From Eledone cirrhosa (Eukaryota): 64,000 nt of DNA. This document shows, one piece after another, positions 4,700-59,356 of this stretch. The notes under the pieces are model-generated. The model worked only from the letters and a program-made list of their open reading frames with translations. It was not told where the DNA came from and did no database searches. Every line of letters begins with the position of its first letter. The first letter of the stretch is position 1. The stretch lies in NCBI GenBank assembly GCA_964016885.1, contig OZ024743.1:227726001-227790000 (forward strand), written 5' to 3'. Made by a program: the position numbers and the translations under genes.

Positions 4700-5009
4700 A
4701 TCAACAGTTTTCAAAGAGATGACAACATGAATGGACCTGTTATTTTTCTCTAAAAATTTGTTTCTGATTCCACCCTGCTCGTCCCCTCAATCTTTTCTCA
4801 TCCTTTCTTCTGATGAAGGTCTAGCTTCCGAAACGTTAAGACCTTCTTCCTGCTATTTCAAACGGTAAACAAATATATATGTATATATATATATGTGTGT
4901 ATGTAAAAGGTAAACAGAAATAACAACATAAACGGTACAGTATATGAAATGAGTATATTTGTTTACCGTTTGAAATAGCAGGAAGAAGGTCTTAACGTTT
5001 CGGAAGCTA
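4700..5009. mobile_element. Penelope-like pseudo-LTR fragments in inverted arrangement (family A)
   Basis: About 4824-4877 is the reverse complement of about 4954-5008; flanked by (TA)n; contains a hammerhead; related 3' tail at about 49333-49390. Confidence 0.7.
4806..4841 (+). ncRNA. Minimal type I hammerhead ribozyme motif
   Basis: TCTT-CTGATGA-AGGTCTAGCTTCC-GAAAC-GTT-AAGA: stem I TCTT/AAGA, short GG/CC stem II, palindromic ACGT stem III, GUU site. Confidence 0.7.
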
Positions 5010-5077
5010 TATATACATATATATATATATATATATATATATACATATATATATGTGTGTGTGTGTGTGTGTATGTA

Positions 5078-5133
5078 ACAGATTTAGCCGTCGAAACGGC
5101 TTGAGCTCAGCCGTCGGGGTCCTACTCGTTCCT
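5078..5133 (+). mobile_element. Family B fragment (3' half of hammerhead)
   Basis: GAAAC-GGCT-TGAGCTC-AGCC-GTC-GGGGT, matching the copies at 21.6, 58.9 and 59.2 kb. Confidence 0.7.
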
Positions 5134-5359
5134 ATATACATATATATATATTGTTGCCTGACTCTGTGGTTGTAATCACTAAAGAAAGAGCCCTCAATAT
5201 TTAATCATAGAAGTAAATATACTATATATTTTTTTTTAATATGACTTTATGACAAACGTAGTAACGCCAGTTTGCTTCGGGGAAATCGGTGTGCCTAGGA
5301 AGGTATACATCAGAACGCTATAATTTTCATACAATATTATATATAGAGAGATAGATATA

Positions 5360-7647
5360 TTTCTGTATTAGCCACAGGGGCACAAAAGAAGGGGACAAAT
5401 ACAAAGGGGGAAGTTTACATACAATAAAAACGTGTAAAATGTTATCACAAATGGAATTTAAAAAGTTAGTCGATTTTCCCCAATAGAGGGAGACAGTTTA
5501 TATGGGTAACACATACCCCCGAAAAAAGATGTGCAATCCTCATCCCCAGGAGTACGAAGAGTTTGTACTCCTTTCCTCTCCTCCTCCTTTTCCTCAACCT
5601 ACAGGCTTATATAGAGAGAAGGCCCATTCACTCGGGCCATTCTCGCCACTTTCACCCACCTTTCATAAAACTTGCTGGGGTACAGCACCTCTCTCTCCAT
5701 CCTGATTCTTCTTCCAAAGTGGTATTTGAAAAAAAGAATCAGTTGTTGGCCGGAGAGAAAGGTGTCTGACCTCAGCCCTTTCAACCTTGTCCACCATACA
5801 ACCTCTTTCGCCATAGCTATCACACAAAGGAAAACCGCCTCTCCTTCGTTTTTGAAGGAGGGTGGCGGTTTGATCATGACAATGGACTCGGTGGTCAACC
5901 GGATTGGTCCCACCCGCGCAATAGTCGTTTTACATAGCCCCACAGGTCAGTGACGCCCGGACAGTGTATGAATGCGTGCGCAACGGTTTCTTCGTCTCGC
6001 ACGCACCTCGGACAGATCTTTTTTGCAGGGTCCCTGCCCGGGCGCCCATGTCTGTAGAGCTTGTCTCGAGCTGGTAGAGCTCCTCGGTAGCACTGCCAGG
6101 CCAGGGACTTTTGGAAGTTGTCCATCGGTCTCGGGCGGAAGGTCCTACCGAACAGACTGGCCAGTTCATCTTCCTCTACGCCTAGAGTTTCACCGAGCGC
6201 GTCGTCGCACTTGCTGCGGATCAACCCTCTATAGAATGACGAAGTGGAATCTCCACTGATCGCCGGGTCCGCCTGCCAGAGGGCTGTGAGAGCCTGAGCA
6301 CATTCGATGTGCTAGTCGCCCATTTTCCTCGGTCTTTGCTTGACCCAGGACTGCAGCTCGGTCAGCGAAACGAGTCGTGGGAAGGGTCGGCTCACGAACG
6401 GGGCCCACACCGGTTGTCCGGTGAGGAATACGTAGAGATGCCGCAGCCTGAGCGCGTGTTTGCGCATCGTCAACCACGGCATCCCCAGCCCTCCGTTAGA
6501 AGGGTGTTGGCAGCAGATGGATCTTCTCACCAAAGGAGCCCGCCTCTTCCAAAGGAATTGGAAGAGCGCGCGCTCCATTTTGGCGAGCGTTTTGGCTGGA
6601 CAAGGCACGACGGTCAAGCGGTAGTAGATGGCGGACGCTATAAAAGTGTTCGCCACCTCCGCTCGACCTTTCAAGGATAGTTTGCACTCGGCCCACTTCT
6701 GGGTGAGTGCAAACACCTTGGCCGTCACTTCGTTCCAGTTCTTCTCCACCTGGAGGTCCGGACCAAACCAGACCCCGAGCAGTTTTACCGGTCCTTCCAT
6801 CCAGCGTCCGACGACACCATCGGAAGGCATCGGTTTGCCTCTCCACGATCCGAGTTGCAAACCGATGGACTTGTCCCGTTTCAGCTTCGCTCCTGTGAAA
6901 CTTTCGTATTCCTTCAGTAAGGTGCCGGCTTCCTCGATTTGTGAGGCGCTCGACACCATTACTGTCACGTCGTCGGCGTAGGCCGACGCCGGTTTCCGCA
7001 GTCCCGGTTCCAGAGGGATGCCCTGCAATAGCTCCAACTTCCGCAGTAGTGGCTCGAGAGTCAGTACGTACAGAAGGGAGGAGAGAGGGCATCCCTGTCG
7101 AATGGATCGCGTAATATGGAACGGCTCCGAGAGGTAGCCGTTCACCTTGACCCTTGAGCAGATGTTGCTGTTGTGCATTGCAGCAATCCAGCCCCTGAAC
7201 ACGGGTCCGAAGCCTGCCGCCTCGAGCACCGCATCCAGGTAACGATGGTCAACCCTATCGAAAGCCTTAGACTGATCGAAGTTGATCAGGGCCCCACCGA
7301 AGCCGGGTTTACACCCTACCCTCTCTATGATGTATCGCATGAGGTGGAGGTTGTCTTGTATGGACCTGGTCGGGATTGCGCATGTCTGCGCTTCTCCCAC
7401 CAGGTTCTCGACGACAAGCGCCAGCCTCTTTGCCAACACCTTGGCCAAAATCTGTAACTCTGTGTTTAGCAGAGTTATGAGTCGGAAGTTCCTATCTCAT
7501 CCCCCTTATTCTCGTCCTTCCTGACTAATGTGACCACGCCCCCGGTTACAGAACTGGGAATTCTCCCGTTCTGTTGCCAGTTGCAGTAGACCGCTTCCAG
7601 GAGACCGGAGAATAAGTCCGGCATTGCTACATAAAATTCGTAGGGTA
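5360..7647 (-). pseudogene. 5'-truncated, frameshifted L1/Tx1-clade LINE copy (RT, C-terminal Cys/His region, 3' UTR)
   Basis: ORFs 6312-7448 (DQSKAFDRVDH, QGCPLS, YADD), 5895-6224 (CPRC..ETVAH..C) and 5599-5943 align piecewise with the intact ORF at 60461-63898; the 3' UTR matches 60245-60460. Confidence 0.92.
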
Positions 7648-7734
7648 GATAGATAGATAGATAGATAGATAGATAGATAGATAGATAGATAGATAGATAG
7701 ATAGATAGATAGATAGATAGATAGATAGATAGAT
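7647..7734. repeat. (AGAT)n microsatellite at the LINE 5' junction
   Basis: About 22 perfect AGAT units. Confidence 0.95.
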
Positions 7735-8436
7735 ATTCATATTTCTGAAGGCTAAAAATTAGTCTCGTTATTTGGAGTCTTCTGAAATCATCCAAAACAA
7801 GGGAGATAACTAATCTCCTTTCAGACGATCAAAGATTTTGATAATATATGCAATCCAAATTGTTGATCTGGTATTTTAAAGACAAATGGTGGACGCAACA
7901 CACATCTTTCGGTTCTATTGACCGTCCTCGTCGACACTCTTGAATAATTATCATATAGCGCAAGGAAAATGACTGAATGGAGCCTTCTTCATACAACATA
8001 CACGTACGGTATGGTCACGCGTAATACAATCAATTGAAAAACTTATCAACTGATATTATCCAGGCAACTATTTGGCAAACCTTCCTTCAGCAATTGTACA
8101 AGGTATAAAGCCAGTAGAGATGAAAGCAAATGATATGATTCTAACTTATTGGAACTACTTAGAAAAGTATGTAATAATGATGCTGTCATATAACCAGATA
8201 TCGGAAGCATATATATTTTTAAAACGACTGAAAACTGATGGTGCACATGAGATTAATCTGGTACGTTTAGACGGATACCTTCATGCAACTCTGAGTGTCA
8301 ACGTATTTATATGCTTAGTTGCCACGTAACTTAAGTAATGTAGAAGACACCAAATTTACATATTGACAGTCCATTGTTTAGAAGCCACAATTCACACTCA
8401 AAGATTGTGATTTATATATAAATATATATATATATA

Positions 8437-58218: not shown

Positions 58219-58297
58219 TTCTCTGATGAGCTTTGGTTTTCCATCATAAATCCATCGGATTTATGAGGTTTTACAAAGCGAAACTGATCAGTAAGGG
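58219..58297 (+). ncRNA. Type I hammerhead ribozyme, canonical core, long stem II (family F relative; element 58180-58381)
   Basis: TTCT-CTGATGA-GCTTTG..TCATAAATCC-ATC-GGATTTATGA..CAAAGC-GAAAC-TGATCA-GTA-AGGG. Confidence 0.82.
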
Positions 58298-58440
58298 CCA
58301 CTAGAAGAGGTAAATATTTATATTATATTTTTTAATGTATTTTGAAAAATTGATTGAATTTTACTTGTTCTGCTTATCTTAATATATGTGTATATATATA
58401 TATATATATATATATATATATATATATAATAATAATAATA

Positions 58441-58794
58441 ATAATAATTGTTTCTACTTTTGGCACAAGACCAGCAAATACCCAGTGCATTACTGGTACT
58501 TTATTTTATCGACCCCGTAAGGATGAAAGGCAAAGTTAACCTCGGCGGGATTTGAACTCAGAATGGCAAGGGCCGTAACTCTTTGCGTCAAAGCATGGCG
58601 TCCGACCCTAATAATAATAATAATAATTGTTTCTACTTTAGGCACAAGGCCAGCAATTACCCAGTGCATTACTGGTACTTTATTTTATCGACCCCGTAAG
58701 GATGAAAGGCAAAGTCAACCTCGGCGGGATTTGAACTCAGACGTAACTATGCTGGAAAGCATGGCGTCCGACCCTCTACCGATACTGCCAATCC
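58441..58794 (-). mobile_element. Two tandem main SINE copies (58441-58608, 58622-58794)
   Basis: Reverse core and (TAA)n tails. Confidence 0.9.
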
Positions 58795-58807
58795 AGTATA
58801 TATATAT

Positions 58808-59010
58808 AACGAAGGAAGTGTGGTAAGGAGCCAGGTGGACCATAACGCACCAGAGTACTCAATACTTAGGGTAGTAGAGTGGGTAATCAGAAAAGGTTCA
58901 GGATCCTGACGGCAGAGCTCATGCCGTTTCGACAGCTATTTCTGGACCGGTCGAGAAATAGCCGTCGAAATGGCTTGAGCTCTGCCGTCGGGGTCCTGAA
59001 TATTTTCCTA
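58808..59010 (-). mobile_element. Family B fold-back element (diverged)
   Basis: Palindrome centred on ACCGGT at about 58946-58951 plus the family B tail. Confidence 0.8.
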
Positions 59011-59155
59011 TATATATATGTATATTTGTATATACATGTATATATGTATGTATGTGTTATATATATTATATAACATTATATGCATGTATATATATATATA
59101 TGTGTGTGTGTATATATATATATATATATATATATATATATATATATATATATAT

Positions 59156-59356
59156 ATAGGAACCAGTAAGACACCGACAGCTGAGCTCAAGCCGTTTCGA
59201 CGGCTAATTCTGGACTAGTCCAGAATTAGCCGTCGAAACGGCTTGAGCTCAGCTGTCGGGGTCTTACTGGTTCCTATTACCCACTCTACTACCTCAAGTA
59301 TTGAGTACTTTGGTGCGTTATGGTCCACCTGGTTCCTTACCACATTTCCTTCGTTA
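59156..59356 (+). mobile_element. Family B fold-back element (near-perfect 122-bp palindrome)
   Basis: Arms 59156-59216 and 59217-59277 centred on ACTAGT, one mismatch seen; tail as in 21655-21733. Confidence 0.88.

Follow-up and report, generated by a model that had tools for sequence, protein, structure and literature searches.

Hammerhead motifs beside (TA)n microsatellites of Eledone cirrhosa: ends and derivatives of Penelope-like elements, with short copies that may begin at a transcript start

What are the hammerhead ribozyme motifs scattered beside (TA)n microsatellites in a 64,000-nucleotide stretch of the Eledone cirrhosa genome (assembly GCA_964016885.1, contig OZ024743.1, positions 227,726,001 to 227,790,000; the whole stretch is called the window here, and positions count from its first base)? 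They are almost certainly ends of Penelope-like elements (PLEs) together with retrozymes derived from PLEs, an ordinary identity. A harder question is how such short pieces arise. We put at roughly 70% the probability that hammerheads carried in pseudo-long terminal repeats (pLTRs, the terminal repeats of PLEs) entered (TA)n as three kinds of product: truncated ends of autonomous elements, units without an open reading frame (ORF) that moved in trans, and minis, which are short copies and hairpins that would extend from a transcript start to a start of reverse transcription.

A motif was defined by the core boxes CUGANGA (or UUGANAA), GAAA and UH around three stems. The original prediction claimed at least 12 type I hammerheads, and all 13 positions that it gave show the type I layout, nine with an intact core and four with one core change; self-cleavage of these type I or minimal hammerheads is predicted. 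Motif frequency also exceeded that of shuffled sequence, as the check proposed for the claim required: two combined structure scans, which tolerate an extra base or mismatch where stem II starts, gave nine matches in the window against a mean of 0.6 and a maximum of 2 in 40 local dinucleotide shuffles. These nine comprise seven of the 13 motifs, one at 28280 on the minus strand and one at 49788 on the plus strand, the last a probable chance match; motifs 9682 and 34328 fall below the stem thresholds of the scans. The motifs make up ten sequence families (11 if two B subfamilies are split), somewhat more than the eight or nine first counted. The proposed Rfam check turned out differently, with no match in the window at the gathering score and no hammerhead among the matches at E<=10 for 34240-34740; in an E-value scan of the window, the best 150 of 367 matches were swamped by microRNA models on microsatellites. 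These hammerhead variants thus evidently escape the Rfam hammerhead models, and a repeat search of the window gave microsatellites only. The minimum-energy fold of a family E copy is a three-way junction; single-motif folding z-scores were mostly unremarkable (the eighth sequence was an H1 mini without a full ribozyme). Stem covariation in the F group changed both sides in 9/21 pairs with 96.6% paired, a score reached in 0/500 shuffles, most rows having been chosen from structure-scan matches; it is weaker in the E group (3/14 pairs).

The window elements are as follows, with core positions given as the first core base (position 3).

4700..5009, plus strand: family A, Neptune-like PLE 3' end with a minimal hammerhead (motif 4806, core 4810, plus, intact) and an inverted piece at 4954-5009.
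5078..5135, plus strand: family H1 mini, tail-less, holding just the 3' half of the hammerhead.
8436..8725, minus strand: family H0, 5'-truncated 3' untranslated region (UTR) of a Hydra-like PLE; U3-A8 type hammerhead (motif 8451, core 8541, minus) with one core change, UUCAUAA against the family core UUGAUAA.
9592..11226, minus strand: family D, 1.6-kb 5'-truncated Neptune-like PLE end; minimal hammerhead (motif 9682, core 9711, minus, intact core) with a stem I of just 2 bp.
11292..11484, no single strand: family E hairpin mini, arms with cores 11420 minus (motif 11375, intact) and 11436 plus (motif 11429, intact), joint at 11428.
12942..13181, plus strand: family F, a probable Hydra-like PLE represented by its truncated 3' UTR (motif 13077, core 13083, plus, intact).
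21516..21732, plus strand: family H1 hairpin mini, tailed, half ribozyme.
28095..28334, minus strand: family F relative with an intact core at 28280 (absent from the original list), a tail and an inverted piece at 28281-28332.
29026..29146, minus strand: family C, short 3' end with a minimal hammerhead (motif 29108, core 29138, minus, intact).
34223..34744, minus strand: family I, 323-bp ORF-less unit, partial tandem, inverted piece; near-canonical type I hammerhead (motif 34328, core 34371, minus, intact core) with a single mismatch in stem I and another in stem III.
39403..39620, no single strand: decayed family E relative in hairpin form.
42653..43608, minus strand: family B, 524-bp ORF-less unit at 42653-43176 and partial tandem at 43177-43392 (motif 42885, core 42958, minus, CUGAUUA, decayed).
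43392-43608, plus strand, the last part of the preceding stretch: inverted copy of family B, tail-less (motif 43414, core 43418, plus, CUGGUGA, likewise decayed).
43661..44121, plus strand: family J hairpin mini, tailed, centre near 43821, a few bases inside the predicted transcript (motif 43821, core 43824, plus, CCGAAGA, stem II with a deletion).
45434..45932, plus strand: family K, ORF-less unit of about 430 bp, partial tandem (motif 45617, core 45623, plus, intact).
57068..57274, minus strand: decayed family E relative.
58179..58387, plus strand: family B2, a truncated copy; the ORF-less tandem unit measures 485 bp and is very young (motif 58219, core 58223, plus, intact).
58809..59007, minus strand: family H1 hairpin mini, tailed, half ribozyme.
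59159..59354, plus strand: family H1 hairpin mini, a tailed palindrome of 118 nt with the predicted start site at its centre; half ribozyme.

Autonomous PLEs encoding reverse transcriptase (RT) and a GIY-YIG endonuclease were sought as partners sharing the 3' ends of these families, and were found for five of them, more weakly for A. Among 10,597 GIY-YIG candidates in the genome, 150 were scored; intact RT+GIY-YIG frames of 938 and 844 aa carry the same hammerhead in both pLTRs (loci L058 and L059), and one further intact frame has 1096 aa. For H0, an endonuclease frame lies in line upstream at 7/14 loci. The window copy of family D is 96% identical over 1635 nt to L310, L311 and L312, which hold RT and endonuclease remains upstream (3/4 fetched loci), and in family E L306 and L307 continue through a simple-repeat-rich UTR into a PLE frame. 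The link is probable for F, with an in-line endonuclease in 3/5 long loci and frames just 71–77% alike where aligned, and is seen for A at one locus, where an RT fragment lies in line upstream (L321). No in-line PLE frame was present in the examined loci of families C and J; PLE frames near K and J loci are not in line and were left out of the counts. Because longer copies run into an RT/GIY-YIG frame, the corresponding window copies are truncated autonomous elements: this holds for motifs 8451, 9682, 11375/11429 and 13077, and more weakly for 4806, all of which had been claimed as non-autonomous. Family H was at one point considered a fixed-size element, a notion dropped as its longer copies run on into the endonuclease frame. 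A CxCX5C linker precedes the GIY-YIG domain in L306, L317 and L320 (partners of E, F and H0), the linker of family D is of the Neptune/Nematis type, and the Hydra clade is defined by a CxCX5C linker and a (TA)n target (PMC8557442). Judged by these linker motifs, the parents of E, F and H0 appear Hydra-like and D and A Neptune-like. The named relatives of the PLE protein are bivalve sequences at 46–48% identity. The labels of several close PLE proteins assign them to bacterial gill symbionts of bivalves, which probably reflects host contamination in those assemblies. In the curated annotation of Octopus vulgaris, 31 PLE families are recently active, and ribozymes are unmentioned in the parts covered (PMC13282606).

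In a blind sample of the 3.0-Gb, microsatellite-rich genome (790 kb from 79 places at round coordinates), a strict scan found 82 motifs in 34 loci; for 83% of these motifs a (TA)n run is present no more than 200 nt downstream, against 16% of random positions; upstream the share is 34%. We observed directly that 3' ends are fixed at a TA junction within each family, tailed or tail-less. Partial tandems, inverted 5'-truncated copies and a tail at one end are all present in window families. Preference for (TA)n and tails have already been published for PLEs (PMC8557442, PMC11167929), and inverted copies too are a trait of PLEs in the literature. The claim that the units are short and (TA)n-bounded stands as far as 3' ends adjoin (TA)n; several units are instead stubs of long elements, the copy at 9682 alone covering 9592-11226.

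Families B, B2, K and I are of another kind. They form ORF-less tandem units of 524, 485, 428–433 and 323 bp with a hammerhead in each unit (motifs 42885/43414, 58219, 45617 and 34328, respectively); the longest ATG frame in B, K and I units spans 55–73 aa, and tblastn found no in-line PLE frame for any of the four. Arrays of family B reach eight units, with a tail-less end at unit position 413 (lacking the last 111 nt), and the breakpoints of its inverted copies vary; a search of sequencing runs with the B unit listed no RNA run. These units have likely moved in trans. It is very improbable that all families are free-standing retrozymes spreading via circular RNA, as the original prediction half proposed. 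That reading draws on the ORF-less tandem structure and well-kept cores of B, B2, K and I (35/35, 14/14, 11/15 and 11/11 dispersed copies), yet longer copies of H0, D, E and F lead into PLE frames, which already refutes it for H0, D and E, and the tail, the inverted 5'-truncated copies and the (TA)n junctions of PLEs are present in the tandem units too. The earlier expectation of PLE-dependent or retrozyme-like elements thus survives in PLE origin, (TA)n targeting and tandem units; ORF-less tandems are confined to these four families.

What, then, bounds the minis at their other end? Compared with long parents, 5' ends fall within -3..+6 of one site in 25/31 truncated arms of E, 28/35 of H1, 10/21 of H0, 5/12 of N and 1/9 of N2 (own-search loci excluded, alignments below 88% identity dropped, both hairpin arms counted); by eye, 5/6 truncated copies of J end at the site. 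The site reads AG(A/C/T) preceded by a pyrimidine and is initiator-like. The 5' ends cluster 29–32 nt behind a TATA-like box, which we see at -29 to -32 in five families (E in three subfamilies, J, H1, N and N2); by chance such a box starts in 4.7% of random 6-nt windows of these repeats. A further autonomous family, with breakpoints outside the counts, has the same TATA/start layout. The base before the site in 40 arms is G in 16, C in 14 and T in 10, while the parents have C or T and never G, an excess of G with p about 0.001 against 18%. In the E hairpin at 11292..11484, each arm begins one G ahead of the predicted start site, and only the minus-strand arm is tailed. Untemplated G has been read as cap copying in LINE-1 and SVA (PMC4859970). 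Since the 5' ends meet at one point about 30 nt behind a TATA-like box, minis are likely copies of the first stretch of an mRNA, an origin that would go some way to account for the head-to-head hairpins of PLEs.

The 790-kb sample contains 36 long hairpins, 20 of which match the pLTR library, against none in 300 kb of shuffled sequence, and the same family stands on both sides of 122/125 head-to-head joints. At one of the three mixed joints (L205:543-915), an H1 arm starting exactly at the predicted +1 is joined to family N sequence, which suggests that two different RNAs were used in one insertion. Microhomology fold-back was rejected as a general cause: it fits the N2 hotspot, not E, H1 or N. 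In family M, another hammerhead family (L080, L089, L041), 5' ends cluster about 66 nt before the core; flanking words there resemble what we take to be NRF1 and YY1 promoter sites.

Could the fixed end have another origin? All of these pieces might be ordinary PLE debris, the clustering of 5' ends being due to a splice acceptor or to a structural stop of RT rather than to a capped start, which we regard as unlikely. Every site also reads YAG, like a splice acceptor, a pyrimidine run lies upstream in E, H1 and P, and in D. virilis the 5' end of helix I is also where the intron of Penelope stops (PMC4209133), with E, J and P breaking 5–6 nt before the core. Splicing, however, would join a constant upstream exon, whereas the bases ahead of the site vary, and no E alignment starts at +3, the first base past AG. 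As to a structural stop, the distance from site to ribozyme core differs among families (E +6, J +6, H1 -43, H0 -45, N +42, P +5); because this offset varies by 87 nt and the TATA offset by 3, the stop is not set by the ribozyme. The H1 site lies inside stem II, and the minis retain half the ribozyme. Less probable still is that hairpin minis are self-propagating non-autonomous elements, whole-unit copies of a few master hairpins in the manner of miniature inverted-repeat transposable elements (MITEs). The uniformity of H1, in which 12/12 fetched copies share centre and both ends and 40/40 scored places match at full length, and of E, with 14 places 100% identical over 139 nt, would suit such copying; but those sets were picked by query, and by-catch copies show many centres around the same site. 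Identical centres are expected from a fixed stop site alone, and minis are without the upstream TATA box. Moreover, the arms of one hairpin are closer to each other than loci are, with at most 3 of 45 nt different in 11/16 E and 12/15 H1 hairpins against inter-locus medians of 7 and 5.

We thus return to the transcript-start reading and propose the following course. RNA polymerase II would start at the initiator-like site and cap the RNA; this start and cap at the fixed site are likely, as predicted from the DNA, and a PLE promoter has been located in the pLTR (PMC2377424). The RT/GIY-YIG protein would nick (TA)n and prime internally, directly downstream of the hammerhead, where an anole PLE has been shown in vitro to use either of two sites. 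Where priming falls in the first pLTR of the transcript, the cDNA would run off the cap after 55–200 nt, and the cap may sometimes be copied, leaving the extra G. Two run-off cDNAs from both nicked strands, one tailed and one tail-less, could then be joined head to head into a hairpin; a single cDNA folded back is the alternative. Full-length and tandem copies would come from priming in the downstream pLTR or on a circle, and ORF-less units would borrow the PLE protein.

Several points weigh against this proposal. Start site, cap and cleavage are predicted here from DNA, and the site was defined from the same breakpoints, which leaves the TATA offset and the extra G as the two independent tests. 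The TATA-like box is absent in H0, family P and some H1 parents, and the D. virilis Penelope promoter is TATA-less and internal (PMC2377424). Clustering of 5' ends is weak in H0 and N; in N2, beyond the single arm at the site, six more end at -5, where the parent is palindromic, and no 5'-end hotspot appeared in the copies at hand of A, C, D, F, B, K and I (ends scattered or few). Arms of one hairpin were counted separately, and 3–4 of the 16 G's can be read as opposite-arm sequence. The splice-acceptor-like reading of every site belongs here as well. Promoter-bounded PLE minis were not found in the literature searched; subscription papers, supplements, Repbase, Dfam and the Zenodo library of PMC13282606 may hold the observation or the families.

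Dimeric PLE hammerheads have reportedly been described by Lunse et al. in 2017. The ribozymes here probably cleave weakly, either in dimeric form or when a protein assists, and the majority of genomic copies are likely passengers. In 42/82 sample motifs stem III forms a perfect palindrome, as expected in dimer-forming hammerheads (PMC4209133). Eight of nine Xenopus dimers were uncleaved (Li et al. bioRxiv 10.64898/2026.07.22.740005), and the anole Poseidon ribozyme is protein-assisted and dispensable for insertion (PMC11167929). Cores are kept in 35/35 dispersed copies of B, 14/14 of B2, 17/17 of F, 11/11 each of D and I, 11/15 of K and 11/17 of H0, a retention that partly reflects age because most families are young. 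Family J has the core CCGAUGA in 7/9 copies. Family P, from another PLE (partner frame in L062) with a 3' end at 42208-42270 on the minus strand of the window, reads CAGAAGA in 25/25 anchored copies, with A at position 4 throughout the family. In 34/82 sample motifs (families K, E, B and J) stem II begins with a U-U pair, where a G-C pair is reported as typical. Such natural core variants are material for assay.

Is the window special? The strict scan of the sample gave 1, 3, 3 and 3 matches in shuffles, and a looser scan gave 107 against 5, 6, 8 and 3; the motifs form 27 sequence clusters. Extrapolation yields about 300,000–385,000 intact-core motifs in the genome, one per 8–10 kb, and the similar density of the blind sample indicates that the window is typical. 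Some 300,000 such motifs in at least 27 clusters would top the published maximum found, up to 120,000 axolotl retrozyme copies (PMC7229834). As 18 pLTR references already account for 3.9% of the sample, repeat libraries may wrongly list short PLE stubs as short interspersed elements (SINEs), MITEs or unknowns.

Other repeats share the window. Decayed hammerhead-like words stand at further (TA)n repeat ends, at 8726-8872 (a member of a dispersed family) and 9253-9399 on the plus strand, 3845 on the plus strand and 4152 on the minus strand. Two related long interspersed element (LINE) copies at 5339-7645 and 60225-63931, on the minus strand, are 81% identical over 2.3 kb and hold the only long protein frames of the window; the latter keeps an open frame of 1156 aa that encodes endonuclease, RT and zinc-finger domains. 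A very abundant SINE-like short repeat, often in tandem pairs, contributes more than 20 pieces (including 1-121, 1153-1575, 12214-12553, 14752-14936, 25940-26329 and 58447-58795).

Should hairpin centres mark transcript starts, the hundreds of thousands of products in this genome would allow a direct test by cap analysis of gene expression and junction counts, and the 2024 in vitro internal-priming result would be tied to genomic copies. A wider proposal, for which we see even odds, is that PLEs routinely integrate strong-stop-like cDNA reaching from an internal priming site to the cap, here as many stubs and cap-to-cap hairpins; that inverted pLTRs across the class arise by twin priming on sense, capped RNA rather than antisense; and that hairpin centres map promoters. 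The origin of inverted pLTRs and tails has been called unresolved (PMC8557442, PMC3846280).

Much of this picture agrees with known systems. As with published PLE hammerheads of Xenopus and coelacanth, the genome has numerous families, most motifs stand singly and derive from truncated PLEs, and opposite-strand pairs occur; the extra base at the 5' side of stem II, the palindromic stem III and the U3-A8 core variant are likewise shared. In contrast to Xenopus (about 9,000) and coelacanth (about 4,000), about 300,000 are extrapolated here, by differing descriptors, and the U-U pair opening stem II and families with C4 or A4 cores set the present motifs apart. Endonuclease-containing (EN+) PLEs show the same partial tandems, inverted 5'-truncated copy and one-end tail (Craig et al. 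2021, PMC8557442), and the Hydra clade the same linker, hammerheads and (TA)n targets; non-autonomous pLTR-forming PLE derivatives are described there from Chlamys. Tails here are about 60–110 nt, in contrast to 30–40 in that work, whose covered passages leave promoter-fixed 5' ends unmentioned. Like non-LTR retrozymes (Cervera and De la Pena 2020, PMC7229834; Li et al. bioRxiv 10.64898/2026.07.22.740005), four window families are tandem units that lack an ORF, derive from pLTRs, measure a few hundred bp and carry a type I hammerhead; the likeness is limited to those four. In anole Poseidon (Frangieh et al. 2024, PMC11167929), both strands are nicked and extended at AT-rich sites and two internal RT starts define the tail, as proposed here; unlike the present analysis that work is in vitro, and the text searched contains neither 'transcription start' or 'TSS' nor RNA-5'-bounded genomic copies. 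Closest to the hairpins described here are the head-to-head pLTRs of rotifer Penelope (Arkhipova et al. 2013, PMC3846280). Their joints are palindromic, the pLTR has a putative TATA and initiator (Inr), and solo pLTRs occur; that paper prefers self-priming on an antisense template, whereas the pattern here points to a sense, capped one.

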